From an uncultured virus (IMG/VR IMGVR_UViG_3300025015_000024) (Duplodnaviria > Heunggongvirae > Uroviricota > Caudoviricetes): DNA of 64,000 nt. Position numbers and translations under genes: made by a program. Below the pieces are notes generated by a model that was given only the letters and a program-made list of their open reading frames with translations, did no database searches and was not told the origin of the DNA. The stretch is taken from positions 1 through 64,000 of the IMG/VR virus record IMGVR_UViG_3300025015_000024; one strand, given 5' to 3'. Of this stretch, positions 3,124 through 59,845 are shown piece after piece; the first letter of the stretch is position 1, and each line of letters opens with the position of its first letter.

Positions 3124-4230
3124 GTGACTGAATATACAATTGATTATATTAAAAAAAATAATCTTATATTACTTGAAGTAATATCTGGTTCTCATGCTTA
3201 TGGTTTAAATACTGAAGATAGTGATATTGATAAAAGAGGAATTTTTGTACAAAAACCAGATGATTATCTTGGTCTTAAAAATATTGAACAAATAAGTGAT
3301 GAAAAAAATGATATTGTTTATTATGAAATAAAAAGATTTTTACAATTAGCATTACAAGGAAATCCAAATATTTTAGAATTAATAGTACCAAGCGAAGAAC
3401 ATATTTTATATAAACATCCATTATTTGATTTATTAAAACCAGAATATTTTTTATCCAAACAATGTAGAAATACATTTGGTGGTTATGCAATTGCTCAAAT
3501 TAAAAAGGCAAGGGGATTAAATAAAAAAATTGTTAATCCTGTTGAAAAAGAAAGAAAAACTCCTTTGGATTTTTGTTATGCAATCGATAAGAGTGGTTAT
3601 AAAACAATACCATTAATAAAATATTTAAATATAAATAAATTAAAACAAGAATGTTGTGGTCTTGTTAATGTTCCTCATATGAAAGATGTTTATGCATTAT
3701 TTTATGATTATAAACAACATTATGTAGAAAGTGGAAGTCATAATGAAGAAGAAAAAGGATTTAAGGGTATTATTCAATCAGAAAAATCAAATGATATTAG
3801 TTTAAGTTCTGTTCCAGAGAATATAACTCCAGAATGTATTATATCTTATAATAAAGACGGATATTCATCTTATTGTAAGGACTATAAAGAATATTGGGAC
3901 TGGGTTGAAAAAAGAAATCCTCACAGATATAAACAAAATATTTCTCATAATCAAAATTGTGATTTTAAAAATTTAATGCACTGTTTTAGATTACTTCAAA
4001 TGGCAAAAGAAATTGCCAAAGGAGAAGGAATAATTGTTAAAAGACCAAACAGAGATTTCTTGCTTGAAATAAGAAATGGTGAATTAAAATATGATGATTT
4101 GGTTAATAATGCAGAAAAAAGAATTGAGGAATTGGATGAGTTATTTAAAAAATCTGATTTACCAAAAAAACCAAAAGTAAATAAAGTAAATGAATTATTA
4201 ATTAAAATTAGAAAAGAATTTAATAATTAA
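3124..4230 (+). CDS. Pol-beta superfamily nucleotidyltransferase (YcgL/RlaP-like)
   Basis: SGSHAYGLNTEDSDIDKRG, GNPNILE and KNLMHCFRLL motifs. Confidence 0.85.
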   Translation: MTEYTIDYIKKNNLILLEVISGSHAYGLNTEDSDIDKRGIFVQKPDDYLGLKNIEQISDEKNDIVYYEIKRFLQLALQGNPNILELIVPSEEHILYKHPLFDLLKPEYFLSKQCRNTFGGYAIAQIKKARGLNKKIVNPVEKERKTPLDFCYAIDKSGYKTIPLIKYLNINKLKQECCGLVNVPHMKDVYALFYDYKQHYVESGSHNEEEKGFKGIIQSEKSNDISLSSVPENITPECIISYNKDGYSSYCKDYKEYWDWVEKRNPHRYKQNISHNQNCDFKNLMHCFRLLQMAKEIAKGEGIIVKRPNRDFLLEIRNGELKYDDLVNNAEKRIEELDELFKKSDLPKKPKVNKVNELLIKIRKEFNN

Positions 4231-21474: not shown

Positions 21475-21885
21475 GGGGATGACAGGCATTGACGTGATCA
21501 AAGTAGTCATAAAATATGTGTTTGGCATTCTGGAAAAGACAGAAGAATCGCTTAAATGGCGAATCAAACAAAGGACTCTCAAATGAGATTGCAAGGTTCT
21601 TGGTGTCAGATGAAAATCTGATTTTCAAAAATCAAGAAATTGAATTTGAAATTGCTTAACAAGGTTAAGTCAATTATATTGGAAACAGGATAGAGTTAAA
21701 CTGAATAATCGGGAACAGATTTTAACTGAACATGTTTGTATAATCCAAACAATAAAATAAATCCTGATTAGTTTAGGGTAAAAGTTTGGGAACGATTCTT
21801 TAAAAATTGAACAAAAAATAACACTAAAAAAATATTTTATGTTGAAAGATTAACGGACCCGGTTTTCGAATTACCGGCATCTCCA
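21475..21885 (+). ncRNA. ssrA: tmRNA
   Basis: 5' GGGGATGACAGGCATTGAC and 3' GGACCCGG-TTTTCGAATTA-CCGG-CATCTCCA form a tRNA-Ala-like domain with G3.U70; internal tag frame 21558-21659 GESNKGLSNEIARFLVSDENLIFKNQEIEFEIA*. Confidence 0.9.
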
Positions 21886-21894
21886 CTTTTTAAT

Positions 21895-22548: not shown

Positions 22549-23166
22549 ATGAATAATTTTTTAAAAAATTTTAGAAGATTATCTGGAATTAAAGAACTTT
22601 CATTAACTGAAGAATTTACTGGTTTCAAAAGAATTCATGTTTTAGAAACCGTTGGCAGAGGAATATCCTCTTTACAGCTTAACGGTATTTCTATTAACAG
22701 AGATAATTCAAAAGATAATGTAATAAATTATCAAATAAAAGAAGGAATATTAACAGAAGAAAAAGAATTTGTTTTCCCGGAAAATCAAAAAGGTGGAATT
22801 ATTGTTTTTTCTATTGATGTTAATAAAAAGTTTGAATATAAAAATTTAATTGATAAAATTAAAGAATGGTTTAAACAAAAATATCAATCATTATTAAACA
22901 GAATATTTAAAGATAAAAAATTATCAAAAATTATAAGTAAACATGAAGAAATAACTGGATTTAGCATCGGTAAATTTTTTAAAGGAAGATATAAATCTCC
23001 TAATGGAAAACATTATGATGAAACAAGTACATCAATTGAAATAATTGGTATTGGTTCTGAATTATTGGAAATTGTTGCATCAAAAATTGCTAGTGAATTT
23101 AATCAGGAAAGTGTATTAGTAAAAGATTATATAAAAAATGAAATATATTTAGCAAATAAAAAATAA
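22549..23166 (+). CDS. Hypothetical protein, possibly head-packaged
   Basis: N-terminal FRRLSGIKE..LTE; C-terminal FNQESVLVKD. Confidence 0.7.
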   Translation: MNNFLKNFRRLSGIKELSLTEEFTGFKRIHVLETVGRGISSLQLNGISINRDNSKDNVINYQIKEGILTEEKEFVFPENQKGGIIVFSIDVNKKFEYKNLIDKIKEWFKQKYQSLLNRIFKDKKLSKIISKHEEITGFSIGKFFKGRYKSPNGKHYDETSTSIEIIGIGSELLEIVASKIASEFNQESVLVKDYIKNEIYLANKK

Positions 23167-23240
23167 TTGATAAATAATTTGGATATGTCATTTATTTTAC
23201 TTACCTTTGTATTTTAAAATTAAAATTAACTATTATTTTT

Positions 23241-23441
23241 ATGGATACAAATATAAAAGAACAAATTGATAATATGGATTATGAATCAATGTTAAGATTA
23301 TGGAGATTTAGTCCTGCTGGCCATTCATTATTTCAAGGAGAATCTGGTGAATATTTCAGTAAAAATATGAAAGAAAAACGTGATAAATTACCAAATGAAG
23401 AACATCCAATCATATCAAAAAGAATAGGTTGGGAAAAATAA
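23241..23441 (+). CDS. Hypothetical phage protein
   Basis: YESMLRLWRF..G..FQG..G.YF..SKRIGW motif; own host-type promoter. Confidence 0.7.
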   Translation: MDTNIKEQIDNMDYESMLRLWRFSPAGHSLFQGESGEYFSKNMKEKRDKLPNEEHPIISKRIGWEK

Positions 23442-23508
23442 TTCATTTTATACTTGTTTATTTTAATTATTTTACTTACTTTTGTATCTTGAAAGTATTT
23501 ATAATAAA

Positions 23509-23580
23509 ATGAAAAACATAAATTTACATAATCTCCCACAGCTACCCAGTAATAAACATTGGGGTGGAAAACTTATGTAA
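23509..23580 (+). CDS. Leader peptide 1, MKNINLHNLPQLPSNKHWGGKLM (tRNA array 1 attenuator)
   Basis: Follows TACTTTTG (23477) and TATTTATA (23496); control codons CTC CCA CAG CTA CCC (L-P-Q-L-P). Confidence 0.8.
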   Translation: MKNINLHNLPQLPSNKHWGGKLM

Positions 23581-23607
23581 AAAAATTAAAAAAATACAAT
23601 AGATTAT

Positions 23608-23647
23608 AAACCCTGATGTTCAATAAAAAAGTCATCAGGGTTTTTTT
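23608..23647 (+). terminator. Attenuator terminator 1
   Basis: AAACCCTGATG/CATCAGGG-T7; its 5' arm can instead pair with leader segment AACATTGGGGT (23555-23565). Confidence 0.85.
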
Positions 23648-23666
23648 ATTGATAAAAAATTAAAAT

Positions 23667-23738
23667 ATGGTGTTAGTTCAGAGGCAGAACGCTACATTTG
23701 GGATGTAGAGGTCGAGATATCATAATTCTCACACCATA
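23667..23738 (+). tRNA. tRNA-Pro(UGG)
   Basis: Cloverleaf; anticodon arm CTACA-TTTGGGA-TGTAG. Confidence 0.85.
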
Positions 23739-23755
23739 CAAAAAAATTAAAAAAT

Positions 23756-23829
23756 ATTCCAGTATCCCAATTGGTAGAGGATATAGTATTAGAAACTATA
23801 AAGTGAGAGTTCGAATCTCTCCTGGAGTA
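23756..23829 (+). tRNA. tRNA-Leu(UAG), short variable loop
   Basis: ATAGT-ATTAGAA-ACTAT; T arm GAGAG-TTCGAAT-CTCTC. Confidence 0.8.
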
Positions 23830-23830
23830 C

Positions 23831-23904
23831 TACCGGATCTTCTAATTTTGGCAGGAAAGCACCCTTTGAAGGTGATAATATAGGTTAGATCCCTACTCTG
23901 GTAA
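23831..23904 (+). tRNA. tRNA-Gln(UUG)
   Basis: Acceptor TACCGGA/TCTGGTA; CACC-CTTTGAA-GGTG. Confidence 0.75.
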
Positions 23905-24008
23905 CTACAAAAATTAAAAAAATATTAGATAATACTTGTTTATTTCAATTATTTTACTTACCTTTGTATTCTAAATATCTGAATTAATAACTTAAAAACC
24001 TAAAAAAA

Positions 24009-24215
24009 ATGAAAGATAAACCACAAAAGCCGAAATTGAATACTACTGTTGTTGGCGGTAGTTTTTATTGGGTTAGACCATTTCAAGGAGATGAATTTGA
24101 ACCTGCAAAGGCTAGAGATAGATATGAGAATGGAGAGCTATATTTCTGCTTTACAAACGGTAGTGTGTTGGAAGTAGAGCGCGCTTGGGAGGTTGAGCCA
24201 TTAAATTTCAGCTAA
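24009..24215 (+). CDS. Hypothetical protein (cassette-like)
   Basis: Short, GC-richer ORF containing GTTGGC and ending in GCTAAC. Confidence 0.55.
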   Translation: MKDKPQKPKLNTTVVGGSFYWVRPFQGDEFEPAKARDRYENGELYFCFTNGSVLEVERAWEVEPLNFS

Positions 24216-24270
24216 CGGTTTTGGGATTGCTGTCAGGTTTCTTACGGATTAACAACTAAAATATAATTAT

Positions 24271-24510
24271 ATGAACGAAGAATTAAGAGTGATATCACAA
24301 AGCTATTGCGGAATGACACCGAAAGATAAAGGATGCAAAACTTGGGCTGAGATGCAACAGAAAATGGCAGATGAATTGGAATGTGTAGTAAAAAATTATA
24401 TTGTCCAAGCAAATGTTAGCGGACACTTGTGCCAATGTGGAAATCCGATTGCCAGAACGGAGTGCGATGATTGTTTAGACAATAGAATTAGATGCAAGTT
24501 AGAAAATTAG
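24271..24510 (+). CDS. Hypothetical protein with Cys-rich C-terminus (cassette-like)
   Basis: CQCG...CDDC; internal GTTAGC. Confidence 0.5.
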   Translation: MNEELRVISQSYCGMTPKDKGCKTWAEMQQKMADELECVVKNYIVQANVSGHLCQCGNPIARTECDDCLDNRIRCKLEN

Positions 24511-24592
24511 GTACAATTTCCGCTAACGCATCGGAGATTTATGAAGGATTTTTTACGACTTAAACTACAAATTTAAAAATATAAAAAACACA

Positions 24593-24835
24593 ATGACAAA
24601 AGAAGAATTGATTACAAAGCAACAACTGGAAATAGAGCAGTATCAAATTGCAATAGAAGAAAACAAAAAACTGCTGAAAAAGATAAAACTAAATTTCATT
24701 GCGATAGGGATGCCGTTAAATGATAACCTATTGCAATTTGATAAGAAGCAGATAAAATGGTGCTTGGAAACATTAGAAATGATTGAACAAATTAACTGTA
24801 CTGTGCTTGACTATGAGGGTGTGTGGGCGGGTTAA
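24593..24835 (+). CDS. Hypothetical protein
   Basis: IGMPLNDNLLQF motif; ORF in the array. Confidence 0.6.
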   Translation: MTKEELITKQQLEIEQYQIAIEENKKLLKKIKLNFIAIGMPLNDNLLQFDKKQIKWCLETLEMIEQINCTVLDYEGVWAG

Positions 24836-24928
24836 AAAGTTTGCGTATAAGTAGGGGATTGTCGCAATATTATTGATTTTTTAAAATATTTTACTTATAT
24901 TTGTACTTTGAAACTATTTATTAAGAAA

Positions 24929-25009
24929 ATGAAAAACTGGTTAAACATATCAATTCATAGTAATAGTCGTAATATTATACGACCTGGAAGGGGTATGTTT
25001 ATACAATAA
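24929..25009 (+). CDS. Leader peptide 2, MKNWLNISIHSNSRNIIRPGRGMFIQ (tRNA array 2 attenuator)
   Basis: Follows TATATTTG (24896) and TATTTAT; 12 of codons 3-16 are read by the downstream tRNAs. Confidence 0.85.
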   Translation: MKNWLNISIHSNSRNIIRPGRGMFIQ

Positions 25010-25030
25010 TCATTTTTAAAAGATATATAA

Positions 25031-25065
25031 AAAACCCCTTGGATTAAGTTTTTAAGGGGTTTTTT
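25031..25065 (+). terminator. Attenuator terminator 2
   Basis: AAAACCCCTT/AAGGGG-T6; leader segment AAGGGGT (24988-24994) competes for ACCCCTT. Confidence 0.85.
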
Positions 25066-25070
25066 AATTT

Positions 25071-25144
25071 TGGTCTGTAACTCAGAAGTTTAGAGTGCCA
25101 AGCCGTTAACTTGGAAGCCGGGATGGCAGAATTCCCCAGACCAG
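25071..25144 (+). tRNA. tRNA-Asn(GUU)
   Basis: CCAAG-CCGTTAA-CTTGG; acceptor TGGTCTG/CAGACCA. Confidence 0.8.
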
Positions 25145-25160
25145 CTGGAAATATAAAAAA

Positions 25161-25244
25161 GGAAAAGGACTGGCATGGACGAAGAGATAGTCTTGAAAAC
25201 TATTGTGTGTAAAAACATCGTGAGTTCGATTCTCACCTTTTCCG
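25161..25244 (+). tRNA. tRNA-Ser(UGA)
   Basis: ATAGT-CTTGAAA-ACTAT, long variable arm, G73. Confidence 0.8.
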
Positions 25245-25258
25245 CTTTTTTAAAAAAC

Positions 25259-25329
25259 AGGTTCTTGGTGTAATGGCAGCATCTGAAATTCCAAACTTCA
25301 GGGTATGGGTTCGAATCCTATAAAACTTG
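25259..25329 (+). tRNA. tRNA-Trp(CCA)
   Basis: TGAAA-TTCCAAA-CTTCA; GGTTCGAATCC T arm. Confidence 0.75.
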
Positions 25330-25330
25330 C

Positions 25331-25416
25331 GGAAAATAAACCAATCAGGGTATTGGGCCTATTTGCTAAATAGTGCGTTCTGTAAAAAGAATGTGTTTCA
25401 AATACTCTGTCCTCCG
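25331..25416 (+). tRNA. tRNA-Ser(GCU), divergent
   Basis: CTAT-TTGCTAA-ATAG with a long variable arm; several acceptor and T-stem mismatches. Confidence 0.6.
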
Positions 25417-25427
25417 CAAAATTATAT

Positions 25428-25500
25428 TGACCAGTAGCTCAATTGGTGGAGCAACATTCTGATGAAATGAAGGTCGAAGGTTCAAATCCTTCCTGGTCAA
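25428..25500 (+). tRNA. tRNA-Ile(GAU)
   Basis: CATT-CTGATGA-AATG; canonical D and T arms. Confidence 0.8.
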
Positions 25501-25509
25501 CAAAAAACT

Positions 25510-25582
25510 ATTTTCTTAGTTTAACTGGATAAAATATTTGGCTACGAACCAAAAGATGAGAGTTCGAATCTTTCAGAAAATA
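25510..25582 (+). tRNA. tRNA-Arg(ACG)
   Basis: TTTGG-CTACGAA-CCAAA. Confidence 0.85.
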
Positions 25583-25597
25583 CATTATAATTAATAT

Positions 25598-25672
25598 GGT
25601 GCTATTGTTGTAAATTGGTGAGCATAGAAAACTGTGAATTTTCAGGTAAAGGTTCAATTCCTTTATGGCACC
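25598..25672 (+). tRNA. tRNA-His(GUG)
   Basis: GAAAA-CTGTGAA-TTTTC; encoded G-1:C73. Confidence 0.85.
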
Positions 25673-25680
25673 CAATAATC

Positions 25681-26373
25681 TTAATTTAATAATTCAAAAA
25701 CTTCTTTTATTCCTTCACTAGCTTTTTTATTAATATAAGTAATTTCCATTCCAATTTTACTTAAACTTTTAACTGGGTTTGGATCAATAAAAAATACTTC
25801 ACAAGATAATTTTATATAAGTTAACATTTGAAAACAATAATGGATAAATAAAGAAGTTCCAATTATTATTAAATAATCACATTTTTCAATTGTTTTATAT
25901 GATTCTTCAATATTACAAGGATATTCCCCAAACCAAACAACATGAGGTCTTAATTGTGAGCCATTTTCACATTTATCACCCAACTTTATATCATTATAAC
26001 CACAATCATATATTAAATCTTCATCTGATGAGCTTTGAGATTTTGTAAGTTCCCCATGAATGTGAATAACATTTGAAGAGCCACCCCTTTCATGTAAATT
26101 ATCAACATTTTGAGTTATCACGGTAACATCAAAATTATTTTCAAGTTCTGCAATTAATTTATGCGCCAGATTTGGTTTTACATTTTCCAGTTGCCTTCTT
26201 CTTTCGTTATAAAAATCTAAAACTTTTTGTTTATCTTTGTGCCATGCACTTATTGTTGCAACATCATCTATTTTATGGTTTAACCATAAACCATTTTTTC
26301 CTGTCCTGAATGTTGGGATGCCAGATTCCTCACTTACGCCCGCACCAGTAAAAACAACTATTTTCTTTTTCAT
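25681..26373 (-). CDS. cobB: Sir2-family NAD-dependent deacylase (CobB-like)
   Basis: FTGAGVSEESGIPTFR, TQNVDNLHERGG, HIHG, RPHVVWFGE and IGTS motifs. Confidence 0.92.
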   Translation of the reverse strand: MKKKIVVFTGAGVSEESGIPTFRTGKNGLWLNHKIDDVATISAWHKDKQKVLDFYNERRRQLENVKPNLAHKLIAELENNFDVTVITQNVDNLHERGGSSNVIHIHGELTKSQSSSDEDLIYDCGYNDIKLGDKCENGSQLRPHVVWFGEYPCNIEESYKTIEKCDYLIIIGTSLFIHYCFQMLTYIKLSCEVFFIDPNPVKSLSKIGMEITYINKKASEGIKEVFELLN

Positions 26374-27136: not shown

Positions 27137-28114
27137 ATGAAAACTTTAAAATCCGTTGGTGAGTTCCCAAATATAAGAAAAGGAGAAATCAAAAAAGGAA
27201 ATAATAATATCTTGTCTTCCCTCAAAATTAAAAATGATTTAAACAGAGATATTTGGGATGAAAATGATCAACTAAAAGAAAATATAAAAAAAAATCTTTT
27301 GGAAGTTGGAAAAGATTTCTTTGATTATCTTGAATTAACCACAGAAATTAAAGATATAATAATAACAGGTTCTCTTTCAAATTATAATTGGTCCAAATAT
27401 TCGGATATTGATTTACATGTTATTTTTGATTTTAATGATGTCAAAGAATCTGATGATATAGAATTTATAAAAGAATACAGCAATGCAAAAAAATCAATTT
27501 GGAATGATACCCACAATATAAAAATAAAAGGATTCGAGGTAGAAATATATGGGCAAGATAAAAATGAGGTTCATAAATCTAATGGTATTTATTCTGTTTT
27601 AAATAATAAATGGATAATAAAACCAATAAAAAAAGAATTTAAAGTTGACTATGAATTAATTAAAAATAAAGCAAATCAATTAATGAAAGAAATTGATAAT
27701 TTATCTTCTGATAATAATTTAATAAAAAAAATTGATAAGATTAAAGATAAAATAAAACGTATGAGAGAATGTGGTCTTGAACAGGGTGGGGAATATTCCA
27801 TTGAAAATTTAACTTTTAAAATGTTAAAAAGAAGTGGTTATTTAAAAAAACTAAATGATATTAAAAATAAATCTTATGATAATGAACTCTCAATTAAAGA
27901 AAAGTTAAATACAGAAGAATCTGATATGGGTCCAACTATTGGAGAACCAAAGGATAAACATGGATATGATGATTCTGGGAATGAAAATGCAATGGGTTGG
28001 TGGGGATTGGAAGGTGGTGGAAGTTCCGATTATTCCTCATCTTCCTTTGATTCAAGTTCCGATATTTTTGATTTAAAAGAATCATTAAAAAAAGAATTAA
28101 GAAAATATTTATAA
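27137..28114 (+). CDS. Pol-beta-like nucleotidyltransferase
   Basis: TGSLSNYNWSKYSDIDLH, VEIYGQD and GEYSIENLTFK motifs. Confidence 0.8.
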   Translation: MKTLKSVGEFPNIRKGEIKKGNNNILSSLKIKNDLNRDIWDENDQLKENIKKNLLEVGKDFFDYLELTTEIKDIIITGSLSNYNWSKYSDIDLHVIFDFNDVKESDDIEFIKEYSNAKKSIWNDTHNIKIKGFEVEIYGQDKNEVHKSNGIYSVLNNKWIIKPIKKEFKVDYELIKNKANQLMKEIDNLSSDNNLIKKIDKIKDKIKRMRECGLEQGGEYSIENLTFKMLKRSGYLKKLNDIKNKSYDNELSIKEKLNTEESDMGPTIGEPKDKHGYDDSGNENAMGWWGLEGGGSSDYSSSSFDSSSDIFDLKESLKKELRKYL

Positions 28115-30564: not shown

Positions 30565-31293
30565 ATGAACCCCAGACTAAGAAAAACTCTTTTATTCAAT
30601 ACTAAGAAATTTAAGAATCAATATAGCTTTCTCTTTGATGGAATTAATGAATATATTGAAAGAAATAATGCAATAATCAATGGAACTCCTGCAACTTTTA
30701 GTGCGTGGATAAAGTTAAGTAGTTTAAATTTAGTTCAAAGAATAACCACAATAAATCAAAAATCTACTACTACTAATGTATTATCAATCTTTATTGATGC
30801 AAATAATAAGGCCAATGCACAGCATTTTGATGTGGATGGTGTAGCGGCATTAAGTACAACTGTTTTGACAACCAATACTTGGTATCATATAGTCGGGGTT
30901 TTTACAAGTGATTCTTCAAGAACTATTTACGTAAATGGGGTTTCGGAAAATACAAATACAACAGTTCAATCCGCAATGACTGGATTAGATTACACATCTT
31001 TTGGTTATATTGCTTGGACCACTAATATTCAGTTTTTTAATGGAAATATTGATGAAGTAGGTTTTTTTAACACCAATTTAACCGCAGCACAAATAACTGA
31101 AATATATAATAATGGCAAGCCCAAAGACTTAAAAAAACATAGTATGGTAAATAATCTTGTTAGCTATTTTAGAATGGGAGATAAATCAACATGGGATGGA
31201 ACAAATTGGACATTAGTGGATCAAAAAGGAACTAATAATGGAACAAGTGTGAACATGGAATATAATGACAGGAGTCTTGATGTAAAATTATAA
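30565..31293 (+). CDS. LamG/concanavalin A-like domain virion protein
   Basis: FDGINEY, TFSAWIK, WYHIVGV, IYVNG and FNGNIDEV motifs. Confidence 0.85.
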   Translation: MNPRLRKTLLFNTKKFKNQYSFLFDGINEYIERNNAIINGTPATFSAWIKLSSLNLVQRITTINQKSTTTNVLSIFIDANNKANAQHFDVDGVAALSTTVLTTNTWYHIVGVFTSDSSRTIYVNGVSENTNTTVQSAMTGLDYTSFGYIAWTTNIQFFNGNIDEVGFFNTNLTAAQITEIYNNGKPKDLKKHSMVNNLVSYFRMGDKSTWDGTNWTLVDQKGTNNGTSVNMEYNDRSLDVKL

Positions 31294-37791: not shown

Positions 37792-40740
37792 GTGGGTAGG
37801 ACATCAAAAGAAAATAGAATTGTTGAATTTGCAAAATGTATAAAAGACCCATCATATTATGCTGAAACTTTTTGTCAGACATTTGATATGACAAAAGATA
37901 AAAATGTCCCATTTAAAATGTTTAGAAGACAAAGGGAATTAGTACAAAATTGTATTAATAATAGATATAATATTATTAAAAAACCAAGGCAAGCTGGGGT
38001 TACAACATCCATTTCTTTATTTGCTGCATGTTATATGATGTTTCAAGAGAAAAGAAAAGTTATGATTGTTGCCAACAAACAGGACATGGCATTTGAAATG
38101 TTAAAAAAAATAAAAGAATTCATACATTTTGCTCCTAGTTGGATGGGAATTAATTTAACAAGAATTGCTCAGGGTATATTAGAATTAAATAATGGTAGTC
38201 TTGTTAAGGCATTTGCAACTTCAGAAGATGCTTTGAGGGGATTTACTCCAACTTTACTAATTATTGATGAGGCAAGTAATATTAGAGATGGTGCTGAATT
38301 TTGGGGTGCTGCACACCCTTCACTTGCAAGCGGGGGGAAATGTATTATATGCAGTACTCCAAGGGGAATGGACGAATTTTATTGGGCAATATATGATGCA
38401 GCTTTAAATAATAAAAGTAATTTTTATATAAATGAATTTAAGTGGTATGAAGATCCAAGATATAATGATAAATTAAAATGGACAAAGGGTGATTTAATTA
38501 TTGATACGTGGTTAAAAACAAAAGTAAAAGATGAAGATTACGAAGTATTTGAAAGATTAGAAGAAAAAGGATTTGAGCCAACTTCTCCCTGGTTTGAAGA
38601 TCAATGCAGGGAATTAAATTATGATAAAAGACGAATTTCACAAGAATTGTTGGGAAAATTTATTGGTTCTGGCGATAATGTTATTGATGAAAAAGATATT
38701 AATTTTCAAGAAAAAGAAAATGTAATGCCACCGATAAGAAGTGAGGGATTTGATGGAAATGTATGGATTTGGAAAGATCCAATTCCAGATCATCAGTATA
38801 TTTTGGGATGCTTACCACCTGGAGAAAAAGTATTGACAAACGAAGGATTAAAAAATATAGAGGATATAAAAATTGATAATTTACTTATAGATGAAAATGG
38901 AAATTTTACTAAAATAAAAAATATTCAAACAACAAAAAATATAAATGATGAATTATATGAATTTAAATTAAGTAATGTTTGTAGAAAAACAATTTTTACT
39001 AGAAATCATCCAATATTATCAAGTATAAATACCGAACTAAAAAGAAATTGGAAAAGGAAGCATCCAGAACATAAATTTGGAAAACGATATTGGGATTTTA
39101 ATTTCAATTTTATTAATTCAGAAAATTTAAAAATTAATGATTGGATCAAATATCCTAATTTATATTATAATAAGGATTTAACTGATAATGAAATATTATC
39201 AAAATGGGATAAATATAAAAATATTGGTAGAACTGATTTTAAAATTAAAAACCCATTATTAGAAAAAGACTTTTGGTGGTATGTTGGGATATGGTTGGCC
39301 GAGGGGTGGTATTTAAAATCTAAAGCAGTTGAAAAAAGTAAAGGTTTATCAACTTGTCATAATATAAATGAAAAAATATTTGCATATAAAATAAAATTTT
39401 TGTGTGAAAAAATATTTAATAGAAAAGTAAATATAAGAGATAGAGAATCTGTAGTATATACACAATTTAACTCATTACAATTATATAGTTTTTTTCTTGA
39501 TAATTTTAGTGAATACGCCCATAATAAAAAATTACCTGAATGGGTAAAATATTTACCTAAAAAATATAAAATAGAAATTTTAAAAGGATATTTTGATGGT
39601 GATGGGTGTTGGTCAAAAACATATAAAAACAATAAAGGTTTTTCTTTTATAGCATTTGTCAGTGTTTCTTTAGAATTATTAGAGGGAATTCAAGATCTAT
39701 TATTTTCATTAGGAATTATTTCCGCATTAAAAATATTGAGAAAGGGGGGGTTTTGTATTATTGAAAATAGAAAATTTAAAACTAAAATAACATACGACTT
39801 AACTTTAGCACATTATGATAGTTTACAATTAGTTAATATGTTTAATATTAAAAAATATAATCATGTAAATATTAATGATTTTGAAATTAGAAATGAAAGA
39901 ATTATTTCTGGTACTTTAATCAGTAAAGATAATAAATGGATTTATCACAAAATAAAAGAAATAAATAAAATACCTTATAATGGAGATGTTTATAATTTTG
40001 AAACAGAATCTCACACTTTTTTATGTAAAAATATAACAACACATAATTGTGATGTATCAAGGGGTGATAGTAGTGATTTTAGTACAATTTGTATAATAGA
40101 TTTACATGCTGGAGAACAGGTAGTGGAATATCAGGGAAAAATAACACCTGATTTTTTTGGGGAACTTATATATGATTATGCAAATAAGTATCAAGCATAT
40201 ACAATAATTGATGTAACTGGTGGAATGGGGGTTGCCCCAATTCTAAAATTAATAGATATGGGATTTGATAAAAAATTACTTCATTATGATAATCCCAAAT
40301 CCAGATTAATACAAGAAAAGTTGGGCAGATTTAAAAAAGGAGATAAATTACCAGGATTTAATATAGGAGCAAATAGAAATATGACCATAATGGAATTTGA
40401 AAGACAAGTTAGAATGGGTGAGATAAAAATTAGATCAAAAAGATTAATAAATGAAATGAAAACTTTTATTTGGAAAAATGTTGGACCAAATGTCAGCAGA
40501 CCAGATCATATTTCTGGAAAAAATGATGACCTTATTTGGAGTATATCAATGCCACTTTTTATTTCTCAAACAACATTTAAAAATCTTAAAAGATATAATG
40601 AACAAACAAAAGCAATGTTGAGTAGCATGACATCTGATTCAAATCAATATAAGGATACAATAACACCACAAACAGGATATATGGGGAGAAATGATACAAA
40701 ATGGGCATATCAAGAATATGGGTGGTTATTTAAAAAATAA
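37792..40740 (+). CDS. terL: Terminase large subunit (T4 gp17-like) with intein
   Basis: KPRQAGVTT, LIIDEA, STPRG, DVSRG..D and DDL motifs. Confidence 0.93.
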   Translation: MGRTSKENRIVEFAKCIKDPSYYAETFCQTFDMTKDKNVPFKMFRRQRELVQNCINNRYNIIKKPRQAGVTTSISLFAACYMMFQEKRKVMIVANKQDMAFEMLKKIKEFIHFAPSWMGINLTRIAQGILELNNGSLVKAFATSEDALRGFTPTLLIIDEASNIRDGAEFWGAAHPSLASGGKCIICSTPRGMDEFYWAIYDAALNNKSNFYINEFKWYEDPRYNDKLKWTKGDLIIDTWLKTKVKDEDYEVFERLEEKGFEPTSPWFEDQCRELNYDKRRISQELLGKFIGSGDNVIDEKDINFQEKENVMPPIRSEGFDGNVWIWKDPIPDHQYILGCLPPGEKVLTNEGLKNIEDIKIDNLLIDENGNFTKIKNIQTTKNINDELYEFKLSNVCRKTIFTRNHPILSSINTELKRNWKRKHPEHKFGKRYWDFNFNFINSENLKINDWIKYPNLYYNKDLTDNEILSKWDKYKNIGRTDFKIKNPLLEKDFWWYVGIWLAEGWYLKSKAVEKSKGLSTCHNINEKIFAYKIKFLCEKIFNRKVNIRDRESVVYTQFNSLQLYSFFLDNFSEYAHNKKLPEWVKYLPKKYKIEILKGYFDGDGCWSKTYKNNKGFSFIAFVSVSLELLEGIQDLLFSLGIISALKILRKGGFCIIENRKFKTKITYDLTLAHYDSLQLVNMFNIKKYNHVNINDFEIRNERIISGTLISKDNKWIYHKIKEINKIPYNGDVYNFETESHTFLCKNITTHNCDVSRGDSSDFSTICIIDLHAGEQVVEYQGKITPDFFGELIYDYANKYQAYTIIDVTGGMGVAPILKLIDMGFDKKLLHYDNPKSRLIQEKLGRFKKGDKLPGFNIGANRNMTIMEFERQVRMGEIKIRSKRLINEMKTFIWKNVGPNVSRPDHISGKNDDLIWSISMPLFISQTTFKNLKRYNEQTKAMLSSMTSDSNQYKDTITPQTGYMGRNDTKWAYQEYGWLFKK
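38809..40047 (+). mobile_element. LAGLIDADG intein in TerL (413 aa)
   Basis: G|CLPPG...THN|C; VGIWLAEG and LKGYFDGDG; inserted next to the nuclease Asp. Confidence 0.92.
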
Positions 40741-41591: not shown

Positions 41592-44500
41592 ATGGCAGAA
41601 CAACAAAAAACTACTTTATATCAACGACTTACAAAACTCTTTGGAACAGGTGGCCAACCTGTAATTGATAAAAAACCTTCAATATCAGCAAAAGAATTAT
41701 TGACAGCGACTTCTGCCGAAGAACTGATGTTAAAAAAATTAGCAGCCCAGCAATCACAATATTTGGGAAATCAATTTGAGAAAATAACATCCAATTTATA
41801 TCAACAATCAGTTTATTATGAAACAACAAGACTTGCAAGTTATGCGGATTTTACGGCCATGGAACATACCCCAGAAATTGCGGCCACTTTAGATCTTGTA
41901 TCTGAAGAAAGCTGTCTAGCTGGGAATAGTACTATAAGATTATTAGATGGAACTAACCCAACAATAAAAAAATTATATAAAGAAAATAAAAAAAATTTTT
42001 GGATATATTCTTATGATACTAATAATAATAAATTTATTCCATCTAAAGCAGAGAAAGTAATTTATAAAGGCATTCAAGATATATATTTGATTAAATTAGA
42101 CGATGATACAAAAATAAAATGTACTGGTAATCATAAATGGTTAGGGAAAGATAATAAGTGGATAGAAACACATGATTTATATAAAGGATATTTTTTCATT
42201 AATCATAAGGTTATTTCTATAAAATATATGGGAAAAGAGAAAGTATATGATGTTGTTAATTCTGGTAAATTTAATAATTTTGGGGTTAAGTGTAATAGTG
42301 GGATGATTATAAGTCATAATTGTACGCTCTCAGAATTTGGTAAAATGTTACAAGTATTCTCTGATAGTAAAAGAGTTAAAACAATTCTTGAAAATTTATT
42401 TTATAAAACTTTAGATATTAACATTAATTTACCAGCATGGACAAGAAATACATGTTTATATGGCGATAATTTTATTTATCTTAAATCAGAAATTGGAAAG
42501 GGAATTGTTGGGGTTAAACAACTTCCAAATATTGAAATAAGAAGAGAAGAGAGTTCGATTACTGATCAGAAAAATATGATTAGATTTATTTGGCAAGGAA
42601 AAAGTATGGAATTCACGGCCTGGCAAATTGCTCATTTTAGATTATTGGGGGACGATAGAAAATTACCTTACGGAAATTCTTTTTTAGAAAAAGTAAGGAA
42701 GATATGGAAAATGTTGATATTAGCAGAAGATGCAATGCTTGTCTATAGAATAACAAGAGCACCTGAAAGGCGTGTATTTAAAATTGATGTTGGAAACTTA
42801 GATGATAAAGATGTTGAGCCGTATATTCAAAGAGTTGCTCAAAAATTTAAAAGACAGCCGCAAGCTGAAAATACTGGTAATTTTACAGGACAAGTAGATA
42901 TGAGATATCGAACACTTCCAGTATGGAAAAATACTCCAATCCCATTATTGGATGGTAGAACAATAACAATAGAAGAATTATCAAAGGAATATGAAGAAGG
43001 AAAATATAATGAGGTCTATTCTATAAAAGATAATACACATGAAATTGTTCCTGGAAAAGTTATTTGGTGTGGTAGGAATTATAAAGCAAATAAATTAATT
43101 AAAATTTGGTTGGATAACAAAACATGGATAATGTCTGCACCAGAACATCCATTTATTTTAAGAGATGGTTCACATAGTAGAGCAGATAAATTATGTTCTG
43201 GTGATAAATTAATGCCATTTAGACATGTTAAAATTAAAATAAAATATACAGAAGAAATTTATGAACCAGATGATGTATATTGTATGACTGTTGTTGGACC
43301 AAATGGAGAAAATAATAGACATAATTTTGCTGTTTGCTCTCTTAATAAAGATGAAAACTATACGAGAAAGGGTGTATTTGTTAAGAATAGCACGGATGAA
43401 GATTTTTTCTTACCAACAAGACAAGGTGGAGGAGATACAGAAATTGATACATTACCTGGTGCAAGCAATTTATGTCTTTCATTAGATACAAAAATTCCTC
43501 TATTAGATGGTAGAACATTAAAATTAAAAGAAATTATCGAAGAGTATAAAAATAATAAAGATTTATGGGTTTATAGTTGTAATCCAAATACTGGTGAAAT
43601 TATTCCAGGGATCATTTCATGGGCGGGAATTACAAGAAAAAATGCTCATGTTTTAAAAATTACGTTAGACAACGGAAAAGAGATTATATCAACACCGGAT
43701 CATAAATTTTTAACAAGGGATGGACTAAAAAAAGAAGCAAAAGATTTAGAAATAAATGAATCTTTGATGCCGTTTCATAGAAAAAAAGAAAAAATAAGTA
43801 AAAATTCTAGTGACTATGAAATGATTTGGGATAATTCAAAACAAAAATGGATTTTTATTCATAGAATGGTTGGTAGTTATATGAAAGATAAAAATTTACA
43901 TAATGAATTAATACATAATAATAAATTTATAAATGAAAATAAAAATATTATTCATCATAACAATATGAACCGATTTTGCAATAATCCTAGCAATTTATAT
44001 TTTATGAGTAGAAATGATCATATAGATCTTCACTGTGATTTTAATAATAATTTATTAGAGTGGAATAAAAATCCAATTAATTTAAAACAAAAAGGAAAAT
44101 TAATAAGTAAAACAAAATCAGATCCAGAACGTAAAAAAATATATTCAAAAAACGCTAAAAAATTATGGGAAAATAAAGAATATAAAAATAAAGTATTTAG
44201 CAAACCACAAAAAATTATATTTACTGATAAGTTATATTCAATATTTTTTGATACTTTTAAATTATATGGCAGAAGTGATTTAACTCTTGAAAAATTAAAT
44301 TCTAATAAAATCTTTATGCATGAATTTATATTGTCAAATTCAAATATTCGTAGCTCGATGACCAATTTATCAGAATTTACTCATAATCATGTAGATAAAA
44401 TGGTTAAAGAAAAAGGATATAAAAATTATCGAGAATGGGTTAAAAAAACTTCTGATAATTTGGGATATAAAAATGTTAATTCTTGGAGATATTATATTGC

Positions 44501-45539
44501 TAAAGAAAATAAAACAGGAAAATATACTACTCATAGATTTTTAGAACAAGATTACTATAATCATAAAATTACTAAAATTGAATGGTTGGAAGAAAAAATT
44601 GATACTGGAACAATTACCGTAGATGGAGAACATAAATATCATAATTTTCATACTTTTGCAGTAGAATCTGGGGTGTTTATATATAATTCTGAAATTGCAG
44701 ATATAGAATATATCCAGCGTAAATTATTCACAGCAATGAGAGTTCCAAAGGCATTTCTTGGTTTTGAGGAAGCAATTGGTGAAGGAAAAAACTTGGCACT
44801 TCAAGATATAAGATTTGCTCGTACAATTAATCGTATTCAACAATCAATGATTCAGGAATTAAATAAAATCGCCATTATCCATTTATATATGTTAGGATTT
44901 GAAGAGGAACTTGACAATTTTACTTTAACACTAAATTCCCCATCAACACAGGCAGAGATGTTAAAGATTGAACAGTGGAAAGAAAAAGTATTATTATATA
45001 AGGATTTGGTATCATTAAATGATACAGGATTTGCTGCAACGTCAATGACATGGGCCAAAAAGAATATTCTTGGTTTCTCTGATGATGAAATTATATTGGA
45101 TCTTAAACAACAAAGAGTGGAAAAGGCTGCAGGAAAAGAAAATGAAGCGCCAGAACAAATTATTCATACAGGATTATTTGATGCTTTGGATAAACGTTAT
45201 CAACAAAAACCAGGGGAAGAAGCACCAGAAGGTGGTGAAGGTGGCGCACCTGGCGAATTACCAGGTGTTGGTGGAATGGGTGGGGGTGAAGAATTACAAC
45301 CACCAGGTGGAGGGCCAGGAGGTGGTGGAATGCCAGAACTTCCTGAATTAACTGAAGAAAATAAAATTAATATATTGGAAAGTGAAGATAAGGAACAAGA
45401 TTCAAAATATAAAATATTGAATGATGATTCTAAAGTATTAAATGAAGATTTAAAAACAATGTTTGAATCTTTGGATGAAACGTTAAGTGAAAATAAAGAG
45501 ATTATTATAAAAAAAATTGAAGATGATGAAAAAGAGTAA
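41592..45539 (+). CDS. Portal protein (T4 gp20-like) with three inteins
   Basis: EDAMLVYRITRAPERRVFKIDVGNL, EDFFLP and TEIDTLPG motifs; about 617 aa after splicing. Confidence 0.93.
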   Translation: MAEQQKTTLYQRLTKLFGTGGQPVIDKKPSISAKELLTATSAEELMLKKLAAQQSQYLGNQFEKITSNLYQQSVYYETTRLASYADFTAMEHTPEIAATLDLVSEESCLAGNSTIRLLDGTNPTIKKLYKENKKNFWIYSYDTNNNKFIPSKAEKVIYKGIQDIYLIKLDDDTKIKCTGNHKWLGKDNKWIETHDLYKGYFFINHKVISIKYMGKEKVYDVVNSGKFNNFGVKCNSGMIISHNCTLSEFGKMLQVFSDSKRVKTILENLFYKTLDININLPAWTRNTCLYGDNFIYLKSEIGKGIVGVKQLPNIEIRREESSITDQKNMIRFIWQGKSMEFTAWQIAHFRLLGDDRKLPYGNSFLEKVRKIWKMLILAEDAMLVYRITRAPERRVFKIDVGNLDDKDVEPYIQRVAQKFKRQPQAENTGNFTGQVDMRYRTLPVWKNTPIPLLDGRTITIEELSKEYEEGKYNEVYSIKDNTHEIVPGKVIWCGRNYKANKLIKIWLDNKTWIMSAPEHPFILRDGSHSRADKLCSGDKLMPFRHVKIKIKYTEEIYEPDDVYCMTVVGPNGENNRHNFAVCSLNKDENYTRKGVFVKNSTDEDFFLPTRQGGGDTEIDTLPGASNLCLSLDTKIPLLDGRTLKLKEIIEEYKNNKDLWVYSCNPNTGEIIPGIISWAGITRKNAHVLKITLDNGKEIISTPDHKFLTRDGLKKEAKDLEINESLMPFHRKKEKISKNSSDYEMIWDNSKQKWIFIHRMVGSYMKDKNLHNELIHNNKFINENKNIIHHNNMNRFCNNPSNLYFMSRNDHIDLHCDFNNNLLEWNKNPINLKQKGKLISKTKSDPERKKIYSKNAKKLWENKEYKNKVFSKPQKIIFTDKLYSIFFDTFKLYGRSDLTLEKLNSNKIFMHEFILSNSNIRSSMTNLSEFTHNHVDKMVKEKGYKNYREWVKKTSDNLGYKNVNSWRYYIAKENKTGKYTTHRFLEQDYYNHKITKIEWLEEKIDTGTITVDGEHKYHNFHTFAVESGVFIYNSEIADIEYIQRKLFTAMRVPKAFLGFEEAIGEGKNLALQDIRFARTINRIQQSMIQELNKIAIIHLYMLGFEEELDNFTLTLNSPSTQAEMLKIEQWKEKVLLYKDLVSLNDTGFAATSMTWAKKNILGFSDDEIILDLKQQRVEKAAGKENEAPEQIIHTGLFDALDKRYQQKPGEEAPEGGEGGAPGELPGVGGMGGGEELQPPGGGPGGGGMPELPELTEENKINILESEDKEQDSKYKILNDDSKVLNEDLKTMFESLDETLSENKEIIIKKIEDDEKE
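41913..42320 (+). mobile_element. Portal mini-intein 1 (136 aa)
   Basis: S|CLAG...TGNH...SHN|C. Confidence 0.9.
42918..43388 (+). mobile_element. Portal mini-intein 2 (157 aa), Pro1 class-3-like
   Basis: L|PVWKNTPIPLLDG...PEHPF...VYCMTV...FVKN|S. Confidence 0.8.
43473..44687 (+). mobile_element. Portal intein 3 (405 aa) with HNH endonuclease
   Basis: L|CLSLDT...TPDH...IHH..N..NN...NL...H...IYN|S. Confidence 0.88.
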
Positions 45540-57877: not shown

Positions 57878-57949
57878 TTAAATAATTTTTTTAATTAATC
57901 TATTGACTTTTTAGAATATTTTATTTATCTTTGTATTTATAATAATATA

Positions 57950-58030
57950 ATGAAACAGATAACGACATATTTTGGTGGAAATGGTGATGGCACAACTGAT
58001 GCGATAACCATAATGGCCAGATTATGTTAA
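57950..58030 (+). CDS. Leader peptide 3, MKQITTYFGGNGDGTTDAITIMARLC (tRNA array 3 attenuator)
   Basis: Follows TATCTTTG (57926) and TATTTATA (57934); F-G-G-N-G-D-G-T-T-D-A control region. Confidence 0.8.
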   Translation: MKQITTYFGGNGDGTTDAITIMARLC

Positions 58031-58051
58031 AAATATAAATAACAACTATAT

Positions 58052-58086
58052 AAAAACCCTGGCTAATAAAAAGTCAGGGTTTTTTT
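58052..58086 (+). terminator. Attenuator terminator 3
   Basis: AAAAACCCTGGCT/AGTCAGGG-T7; leader segment TGGCCAG (58014-58020) can pair with CTGGCTA (58059-58065). Confidence 0.85.
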
Positions 58087-58101
58087 GTTTATATGATAAA
58101 T

Positions 58102-58178
58102 GGTGATACAGCATATTGGTGCATGTTGCTTCCCTGTCACGGAAGAGATTGTCGGTTCAAATCCGTCTATCACCGCCA
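58102..58178 (+). tRNA. tRNA-Asp(GUC)
   Basis: CTTCC-CTGTCAC-GGAAG; G73 and encoded CCA. Confidence 0.85.
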
Positions 58179-58179
58179 A

Positions 58180-58252
58180 GGAACTTTGGTGTAGGTGGTC
58201 TGCACAACTGTTTGAAGCACAGTGGGTCTTTGTTCGATTCAAAGAGGTTCCA
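58180..58252 (+). tRNA. tRNA-Phe(GAA)
   Basis: ACTGT-TTGAAGC-ACAGT. Confidence 0.8.
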
Positions 58253-58272
58253 CAAGGTTATTCATTTTTACA

Positions 58273-59502
58273 TCAAACATTACATTTGAGTTCAAATGAT
58301 TTTACAAATTCAACTTTGTATGGGTTAAACCCTAACCCTATATTCCTTATGTTACTTATGAATTTTTCACATTCAGGAATTACTTTTGATTTTAACATTA
58401 TTCCAATTGCACCATTAACATCAGCATTTATTGTTTTGCCAATACTACTTAAAAATAAACCACGCTTTATTCTTTTGCCAAGATAAATTGCTTGTTTTTG
58501 TATCGGTTCAAATGCCAAATGGTCGCATTTACTGGTATAACTTTCTTCCTGCTCAACAAGTTTTATGCTGTTGAGTTCTAACTTATATTTTATTTTATCT
58601 ATAAGTTTGGCATGAGGGATAGAAACAAAATTCTGGTTATTACGGCTACCAATATTTATTTTCTTCTTCCAATGTTCATTTTTACCGATAACAACTGTCC
58701 CAATATTATACTTTAAACAGTATTTAAGAATGAAATCGCCTACCTGGTGCATTGCATTTTCTATCTTGTTATTCCTGTCAAAAGTTAATTTATTTATTCT
58801 GTTTGACGTCCCTTTATTACCAACATAACTCATTAACTTGGCTCGCTTTTTATTAAAATACGCATTGATGGATTTTAATCCTCTACCGTTGATAATGAAA
58901 GGATTATTACCGACATTATCTATTGCTGTGATAAGATTGTTTAATCCCAAATCAATGCTTAATACATTTTCTTCTTTTATTTTTTCATGTTTTACCTCCT
59001 TTTTTTCATAGACAACTTCTATTACAAAACAAGTTGCTTGTGGAATTATTCTCACTTGTGATATATTATCTACTTTTGTTTTTAATGGTTGAATATTTGC
59101 TTGTTTTGGAAAATGTATAAGTCCCCCTTTTAAATTAACTTGCTGATTAGTGAAAATGCAAATAGAATATCCAGCCTTATCTTTGTATTTTGGTTGCTTA
59201 GGGTTTCCTTTAAATTTGCTTGGGCATTTTTTATATTCTTTTAATGCTTTGAAATATGACTTCCAGTTCTTAAAAAGTAATTTTATTATTTGCTGCGATG
59301 TTTGTGCCGGCAATGCCCTATAATCTTCCTGGTTAAATTCAGCAAGCAATTTAGATAATTCATATTCCTCAAATTTCTGTATATTACCAAAAAATGCTTG
59401 CCGTTTGTGATAATTACAAAAATTATACAATCTGGCTGATTTAAAACAAATATCCTCTATTGCTTTATCGTTTATCCTAATATGTCGCTCTACGAGTTGC
59501 AT
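58273..59502 (-). mobile_element. tnpB: TnpB, intact, inserted inside tRNA array 3
   Basis: MQLVERH start; SIDLGLNN, EESYTSKC and NADVNGA motifs. Confidence 0.92.
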
Positions 59503-59621
59503 TATTTATATAAAACTTAAAGTTTTACACTTATAAATATCTTTCTAAAATAAAAAACTCAATAAAATGAATACATAAGAAATAAATAATATCAAAAATT
59601 ACTATTTATATAAGATAATGT

Positions 59622-59697
59622 GCATCAGTAGCTCAATTGGTAGAGCGCCGGTCTTCCAAATCGGAGGTTGTGGGATCATAGCCCATCTGATGCTCCA
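59622..59697 (+). tRNA. tRNA-Gly(UCC)
   Basis: CCGGT-CTTCCAA-ATCGG; U73 and encoded CCA. Confidence 0.88.
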
Positions 59698-59712
59698 GAT
59701 TAAATAAAATAT

Positions 59713-59785
59713 GGGGGTACATGTACCAAGGCTGGCGAAGAGCATTTGCAATGCTTTTGGGTGGATTGGATTTCCACTATCTCCA
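59713..59785 (+). tRNA. tRNA-Ala(UGC)
   Basis: GAGCA-TTTGCAA-TGCTT; G3.U70, A73. Confidence 0.8.
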
Positions 59786-59845
59786 CTAAATATATAAATG
59801 ATTTCTTTTTCAATCATCAAACTATTTATATAAAAATATATTCTT

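Follow-up and report, generated by a model that had tools for sequence, protein, structure and literature searches.

The three predicted transfer RNA (tRNA) genes of array 1 in the uncultured Caudoviricetes virus IMGVR_UViG_3300025015_000024 (IMG/VR) are preceded by all the parts of a leader-peptide attenuator, in the correct order. We refer to this arrangement as unit 1, and to the analysed DNA, i.e. positions 1 to 64,000 of the viral record, as the window. Judged from sequence, it is probable that these tRNA genes are under ribosome-mediated (leader-peptide) attenuation, by which the phage would sense the supply of the very tRNAs that it controls. Two sister units in the window, together with 50 further distinct leaders from related phages, support the idea independently.

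Architecture of unit 1

Unit 1 starts with a candidate promoter of Bacteroidetes type (Table 1), the -7 box of which forms part of a phage-wide motif, TTTTACTTAYNTTTGTA, at 23470-86. With up to two mismatches allowed, the window contained 14 copies of this motif, compared to 1.6 expected, and a regular expression recovered 12 copies in the whole record of 76,837 bp. Its core matches TAnnTTTG, which we take to be the Bacteroidetes -7 consensus. The leader open reading frame (ORF) begins 25 nt 3' of the -7 box with an ATG (23509-11) that is the first after the predicted transcript start, and ends with TAA at 23578-80; an alternative TTG start at 23482 falls within the -7 box. Between the terminator and tRNA-Pro, which begins 19 nt past it, no TAnnTTTG could be read from the sequence.

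The original prediction placed the control codons CTC CCA CAG CTA CCC (Leu-Pro-Gln-Leu-Pro) at 23533-23547. These coordinates proved exact, and the five triplets are in frame as codons 9 to 13 of the leader. The stretch had also been described as GC-rich for this genome, and its 15 nt indeed showed 67% G+C compared to 25% for the genome. The genes for tRNA-Pro(UGG), tRNA-Leu(UAG) and tRNA-Gln(UUG) said to lie downstream were recovered as Rfam tRNA matches at 23667-738, 23756-829 and 23831-904. With codon usage in 52 ORFs of at least 150 aa of the same genome as background, the CTN, CCN and CAR boxes together accounted for 7.9% of codons. In leader 1, 6 of 22 codons fell into these boxes (binomial P=0.006); for five matched codons in a row, the probability was 7.5e-5 in 200,000 simulations based on the phage's own codon usage. 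Chance was considered as a source of the codon match in unit 1 and was ruled out by these simulated runs together with family-wide permutations (see below).

Downstream of the control codons, AACATTGGGGT (23555-65, region 2) was predicted to form 11 bp, including two G.U pairs, with ACCCTGATGTT (23610-20). We confirmed this antiparallel pairing, at -11.8 kcal/mol. The partner segment, to which the role of the terminator's 5' arm had been assigned, overlaps the 5' stem strand (23608-18) of an 11-bp hairpin of -15.1 kcal/mol that is followed by a T-run (seven T at 23641-47); ACCCTGATG belongs to the 5' arm of this hairpin. A consensus terminator scan limited to loops of 3-8 nt passed over this terminator because its loop measures 14 nt. 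The best duplex between leader and terminator 5' arm reached -12.1 kcal/mol (z=-2.7) and was equalled by 1 of 200 dinucleotide shuffles.

Constrained folds, in which a 30-nt ribosome footprint was placed on chosen codons, were consistent with a switch between the two structures. While the polymerase had not yet passed the 3' arm, a footprint placed on any of the control codons made the antiterminator the minimum-energy fold, with 11 bp (9 bp for CCC), so that the predicted release of region 2 by a ribosome stalled on the control codons was obtained for all five. With the footprint at the stop codon, the antiterminator was blocked and the terminator formed. In the free transcript, 23536-50 paired with 23558-67 and the terminator formed as well.

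Sister units and leaders of related jumbo phages

All 12 tRNA genes listed for the record (8 from aragorn at default settings and 4 added from Rfam matches) sit behind one of three promoter-leader-terminator units. In leader 2, 13 of 25 codons were readable by tRNAs of array 2 (P=8.5e-4, with AGT counted via a low-scoring Ser(GCU)), and nine matched codons stood in a row (P=5e-6); the Asn(GUU) of this array is our own reading of an Rfam match. The predicted antiterminator of unit 2, GAAGGGGTA, reached -12.2 kcal/mol and was equalled by 7 of 200 shuffles, while that of unit 3 reached -10.1 kcal/mol and was equalled by 12 of 200. Leader 3 contains five Thr codons, and no Thr tRNA was found in the partial record. 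A TnpB-type gene (Pfam OrfB_IS605 and a Cas12f1-like TNB domain; 58273-59502, minus strand) splits array 3 between tRNA-Phe and tRNA-Gly, and leader 3 retains four Gly codons despite this gene.

The AGT codons of leader 2 and the GCN codons of leader 3 prompted a search for the corresponding tRNAs, and relaxed aragorn settings yielded two candidates, one Ser(GCU)-like (25331-417) and one Ala(UGC)-like (59715-86). Both have aberrant arms, were without an Rfam match at E up to 1 and were not reported by aragorn at default. If tRNA genes are run as demand-controlled blocks (see below), leader composition would, as a by-product, predict the identity of aberrant tRNA genes that standard finders miss, as for these two.

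A search with the major capsid protein (T4 gp23 type) returned 80 related viral loci, mostly 67-71% identical, and many of these came from records of 320-365 kb with up to 65 tRNA genes. We fetched the tRNA regions of 17 related jumbo-phage records and analysed them together with the present record. To count as a terminator, a hairpin had to carry a T-run and lie within 150 nt 5' of an aragorn tRNA, with 8 bp or more in the stem, 3 or more G-C pairs and 3-16 nt in the loop. As leader we took the longest ORF that starts with ATG, comprises 10-90 codons and stops at most 80 nt ahead of the stem; an operon was made up of all tRNAs on the same strand as far as the following terminator of this kind, over a maximum of 8 kb. 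These rules gave 61 terminators, 57 of them with an ORF, and 53 distinct leaders once four identical peptides were removed; 50 of the 53 came from relatives, beyond the three units of the window. TAnnTTTG was present within 75 nt upstream in 48 of 57 leaders compared to 5% of random windows. The distance between stop codon and stem varied little (median 25 nt, interquartile range 22-29), and 5-145 nt (median 28) without a promoter motif separated the terminator from the first tRNA. Across the 18 records, 535 of 603 aragorn tRNAs were located behind a unit of this promoter-leader-terminator type.

Leader composition followed the content of the array. In the 53 leaders, 947 of 1718 codons (55%) specified amino acids of the leader's own operon, compared to 25.4% (standard deviation 2.7) when leaders and operons were re-paired, and none of 20,000 permutations reached as high a value; under strict wobble the corresponding figures were 47% and 21.5%. 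Leaders of the type ..QPQPQHQPQ.. head Pro/His/Gln arrays, ..VAVLLWDDAEE.. heads Asp/Glu/Val/Leu/Ala/Trp arrays, ..GTYYYGKKSYKK.. heads Tyr/Lys arrays and ..STSSRNGNGIFCS.. heads Thr/Cys/Asn/Ile/Ser/Phe/Gly/Arg arrays. Where arrays differed, so did the leaders. In relative G010, Thr/Arg/Ile and Phe/Ile/Ser/Gly/Asn/Leu/Cys tRNAs are found in separate arrays, with leaders containing ..IITITQITRIRGT.. and ..LNLNNNPSNLNSNFISGNIFLGTC.., respectively. The array of G016 holds Pro and Gln and no His, and its leader core QPQPKQQPQ is likewise without His; in G009, where tRNA-Trp stands first in a different array, the leader of that array contains W. The present record splits its tRNAs into three arrays unlike any relative, and its leaders differ to match.

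The position of the matched codons was also consistent with attenuation. For this we used a curated set of 31 units, reduced from a 38-record list by dropping stems below 8 bp, one duplicate and two ORFs judged unrelated. Before the antiterminator, 495 of 795 codons were matched (62%), compared to 61 of 240 (25%) in the part that starts with the antiterminator and runs to the stop codon. In every unit, the segment pairing best with the terminator 5' arm was located from -41 to +12 nt relative to the stop codon, and the antiterminator duplex was stronger than in shuffled sequences (mean z -2.8; z<-2 in 20 of 31). When footprints were placed on all 947 matched codons of the 53 leaders, 788 placements permitted an antiterminator of at least 6 bp, distributed over 50 of the 53.

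An alignment of ten Pro/His/Gln leaders with unit 1, the latter three columns out of register, showed 80% of cells paired compared to 68.9% after shuffling (0 of 500 as high), and slid registers of the antiterminator gave 21-55%. Six of the ten pairs of the antiterminator helix change on both sides, e.g. GAAT:ATTC versus GCTT:AAGC (3 of 500 shuffles as high). This covariation was drawn from class-I relatives and not from orthologues of unit 1, because no close relatives of unit 1 were found. The capsid-gene neighbourhoods of 78 non-identical relatives held no tRNAs, and blastn with 23100-26000 against phage records gave tRNA-sized matches only. A 718-aa SbcC-like protein and the 205-aa neighbour returned two identical IMG/VR contigs each and nothing else, and the Sir2-neighbour query against metagenome contigs gave 80 loci at 45-60% identity with no orthologous tRNA array. 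In a promoter-motif scan of viral contigs, a tRNA lay within 560 nt in 2 of the matches listed (at least 119 stretches), neither of them convincing. Flavobacterium phage immuto (41% capsid identity) carries a 51-codon coding sequence before a tRNA-Ser with no T-run terminator, a layout that differs from the present one.

These data bear on two other explanations of the arrangement. The terminator might be fixed and leaky, setting a low tRNA level or ending an independent small gene, and the ORF peptide might be functional itself or remain untranslated. That the peptides within each class are alignable, with motifs such as SRNGNGIFCS or LLWADAED retained, would fit such a scenario, as would the fact that the terminator wins in full-length static folds. 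We nevertheless regard it as very unlikely, since the short distance from the terminator to the first tRNA contained no promoter motif, the match of leader composition to the array was equalled by no permutation, the segment covarying with the terminator arm is preceded by the matched codons, and within a class the Pro, Gln and His codons change their order without a change in composition. A ribosome-free RNA switch, in which uncharged tRNA binds the leader as in T-boxes, would likewise tie tRNA status to the choice between terminator and antiterminator. This seems extremely improbable, as neither the T-box nor any other riboswitch family had a match in 23100-26200 (E up to 1), the codons belong to an ORF with its own start (ATG) and stop, the coding gaps among class-I leaders are multiples of three, and many different codons are present rather than one specifier.

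Table 1. Positions of the features of units 1 to 3 in the window (+, strand as shown).
Feature	Position	Strand	Details
Candidate Bacteroidetes-type promoter, unit 1	23454..23484	+	TTG 23454-56; -7 box TACTTTTG 23477-84
Leader ORF, unit 1	23509..23580	+	MKNINLHNLPQLPSNKHWGGKLM; 23 codons and TAA
Control codons, unit 1	23533..23547	+	CTC CCA CAG CTA CCC (Leu Pro Gln Leu Pro); in frame, leader codons 9-13
Antiterminator 5' strand (region 2), unit 1	23555..23565	+	AACATTGGGGT; inside ORF; ends 13 nt before stop codon
Predicted intrinsic terminator, unit 1	23608..23647	+	stem 23608-18:23633-43, 11 bp, 5 G-C, 14-nt loop
tRNA-Pro(UGG)	23667..23738	+	aberrant T arm; Rfam RF00005 49.1 bits; anticodon read from alignment
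tRNA-Leu(UAG)	23756..23829	+	Rfam 51.2 bits; aragorn default
tRNA-Gln(UUG)	23831..23904	+	Rfam 37.5 bits; aragorn only at 90% threshold
Sister unit 2	24889..25673	+	promoter 24889-905; leader 24929-25009 MKNWLNISIHSNSRNIIRPGRGMFIQ; terminator 25028-66
Array 2, Asn(GUU)	25071..25144	+	
Array 2, Ser(UGA)	25161..25243	+	
Array 2, Trp	25259..25330	+	
Array 2, Ser(GCU)-like	25331..25417	+	
Array 2, Ile(GAU)	25428..25501	+	
Array 2, Arg(ACG)	25510..25583	+	
Array 2, His(GUG)	25599..25673	+	
Sister unit 3	57919..59786	+	promoter 57919-35; leader 57950-58030 MKQITTYFGGNGDGTTDAITIMARLC; terminator 58053-64:58072-83
Array 3, Asp	58102..58178	+	
Array 3, Phe	58180..58253	+	
Array 3, Gly(UCC)	59622..59697	+	
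Array 3, Ala(UGC)-like	59715..59786	+	

Proposed mechanism and its weighing

Under leader-peptide attenuation, host RNA polymerase would start at the phage promoter around 23490, with a ribosome translating the leader close behind. Slow decoding of Leu(CUN), Pro(CCN) or Gln(CAR) codons would make this ribosome wait at 23533-47, leaving region 2 (23555-65) free to pair with 23610-20 as soon as this arm emerges. Once the antiterminator had formed, no terminator hairpin could fold and the polymerase would read into tRNA-Pro, tRNA-Leu and tRNA-Gln, which would then be cut from the transcript, such processing being assumed here. With fast decoding, the ribosome would cover region 2 and reach the stop codon at 23578, the terminator would form and the transcript would end at the T-run. 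The tRNA block would thereby restrain its own synthesis (negative feedback) or, seen the other way, be induced whenever the host pool for these codons is short or damaged; the circuit would amount to negative feedback on tRNA supply because its products are the decoders. We infer leader translation, its coupling to transcription, termination, read-through and the limiting factor (amount of tRNA versus charging) from the sequence.

Several observations weigh against this mechanism. If strict wobble is applied to leader 1, CCA, CAG and CTA alone count, giving 3 of 22 codons (P=0.12) and a run of three (P=0.0034); the other two control codons, CTC and CCC, would need four-way wobble to be decoded by the UAG and UGG anticodons. 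Amino acids served by array 2 (Asn, Ile, His, Ser, Trp) make up about as large a share of the residues of leader 1 (0.41) as those of its own array (0.32). Asn (8.8%) and Ile (9.9%) are common genome-wide. For leader 3, 9 of 25 codons matched under loose wobble (P=0.03), which is weak taken alone, and unit 3 by itself does not reach significance. The tRNA-Pro and tRNA-Gln of array 1 are low-scoring and possibly poor or inactive. A hairpin between regions 1 and 2, seen in the free fold of unit 1 (23536-50 with 23558-67), was no better there than in codon-shuffled leaders (z=+0.5), and among the 53 leaders it reached z<-1.64 in 12, mostly of the Asp/Glu class. In the static model, a ribosome at the stop codon left the antiterminator unmasked in 28 of 53 leaders. 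In full transcripts of unit 1 carrying a stalled ribosome, the terminator was still the minimum-energy structure in 4 of 5 placements; as the terminator wins such full-length static folds, the switch would need a kinetic order of folding. The permutations count related leaders as independent, although these fall into about four conserved leader classes and named variants. Finally, aragorn at default missed at least 4 tRNA genes of the record that score above the Rfam gathering threshold, so that the array contents of the relatives are incomplete.

The nature of the signal could be questioned while the attenuator hardware stays the same. The leaders might respond to amino-acid supply or to general translation speed, so that all tRNA blocks would be raised when translation falters and the codon match would only mirror the limiting charged tRNAs. 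Classical attenuators read tRNA charging, a ribosome cannot distinguish a missing from an uncharged tRNA, and leader 1 also holds codons for array-2 amino acids. On the other hand, extra tRNA would be of no help if the amino acid were absent, and the composition of each leader tracks its own array even when tRNAs change arrays, which would be expected if the product itself were sensed. We therefore consider amino-acid or speed sensing unlikely and retain the sensing of tRNA supply as the preferred interpretation.

Taken further, Bacteroidota phages might run their tRNA genes as demand-controlled blocks, each headed by a leader that probes, one codon after another, whether the cell can at present decode what its block supplies. 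The phage would in this way sense shortage or destruction of host tRNAs (e.g. by the anticodon nucleases of defence systems), replace exactly the missing set and shut the block off once the phage's own tRNAs accumulate. We put this forward tentatively, as a scenario with slightly less than an even chance of being right. Control of tRNA genes is generally ascribed to the promoter, with growth rate and the stringent response as inputs. If our interpretation is true, a translation-coupled switch would act as a direct homeostat of the tRNA pool and would represent the first leader-peptide attenuator to sense its own product. It would also explain the dosing of 30-65 tRNA genes in jumbo phages and tie phage tRNAs to the depletion of host tRNAs. 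In practical terms, it would provide a sequence rule for annotating odd tRNAs, as well as compact programmable codon sensors.

Further features and comparison with known systems

Within array 1, tRNA-Pro was detected by aragorn neither at default nor at relaxed settings. The tRNA genes of the window are without encoded CCA. A Sir2-family gene (25681-26373, minus strand) adjoins array 2, and the window further contains an RlaP gene (RNA-repair-pathway, polymerase-beta-family) and a nucleotidyltransferase-domain gene (3124-4230 and 27137-28114, both on the plus strand). In arrays of relatives G002, G003, G010, G014 and G020 we found a tRNA with CUA anticodon, labelled 'Pyl' by aragorn. This tRNA is a possible amber suppressor and might hint at stop-codon recoding in related jumbo phages.

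A weak transfer-messenger RNA (tmRNA) match was located at 21475-21888 on the plus strand (RF00023, 17.7 bits, E=5e-5, below the gathering threshold of 47), with a copy of the promoter motif at 21269-85. The match lies in a stretch of 700 nt that holds no long ORF, and the ends GGGGATG.. and ..CATCTCCAC could pair as an acceptor stem with G3:U70. Aragorn reported no tmRNA. We regard the match as a candidate for a divergent phage tmRNA. Intein domains were present in the genes for the large terminase and the T4-type portal protein (37792-40740 and 41592-45539, plus strand), the terminase also containing a LAGLIDADG domain.

Leader-peptide attenuation is known from enterobacterial operons, with trpL, hisL, leuL and pheL among the leaders and with multivalent forms in ilvGMEDA (Ile/Leu/Val codons) and thr (Thr/Ile codons). 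The present units resemble the ilvGMEDA and thr leaders in their promoter, in a short ORF with clustered test codons, in an antiterminator competing with an intrinsic terminator so that ribosome position would act as the switch, and in that several amino acids would be sensed by a single leader. They differ in being phage-encoded and in that the regulated genes are tRNAs instead of biosynthetic enzymes, so that the sensed molecule would be the product. Further, region 2 is located inside the ORF and ends 13 nt before the stop codon rather than following it, and the leaders of the relatives cover up to about eight amino acids each. Among the Rfam families of amino-acid leaders none matched unit 1, and the only match was Thr_leader in unit 3 (58017-88), with 21.9 bits versus a gathering threshold of 55.

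The leader attenuator of Escherichia coli pheST, encoding phenylalanyl-tRNA synthetase, shares with the present units the attenuation of a component of the translation apparatus via decoding of its own codons. It controls a synthetase protein and responds to one amino acid, whereas here the transcript past the terminator encodes tRNAs. T-box riboswitches also let tRNA status pick terminator or antiterminator, but they bind uncharged tRNA without a ribosome, use one specifier codon and act on synthetase or amino-acid genes. To our knowledge, all described leader-peptide attenuators regulate genes for amino-acid biosynthesis, transport or synthetases, and the literature, as judged from titles and the openings of abstracts, gave no account of leader peptides or attenuators in front of tRNA genes. 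The novelty is the layout of a leader-peptide attenuator in front of three predicted tRNA genes, which lies outside the described target classes.

The same layout was encountered in Cellulophaga phage phi19:1 (KC821607.1), with a TAATTTTG box, a 30-codon ORF (MNNNTIHIQRLPQPKRF..), a hairpin with T-run and a tRNA array. This array comprises Pro(UGG), Gln, His, Leu(UAG) and Arg(ACG), and the leader codons His-Ile-Gln-Arg-Leu-Pro-Gln-Pro match it. The record annotates the Gln, His, Leu and Arg tRNAs, but not the leader ORF, the terminator or the tRNA-Pro(UGG), which aragorn detected at the 90% threshold (positions 1558-1632 of locus L240, about 31057-31131 of KC821607.1). Unlike the present phage, phi19:1 is cultured, belongs to a different phage family and has a 57-kb genome; the likeness rests on layout and codons. 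A cultured marine phage-host pair with the same layout would make the attenuation of tRNA genes by their own leader peptides testable.

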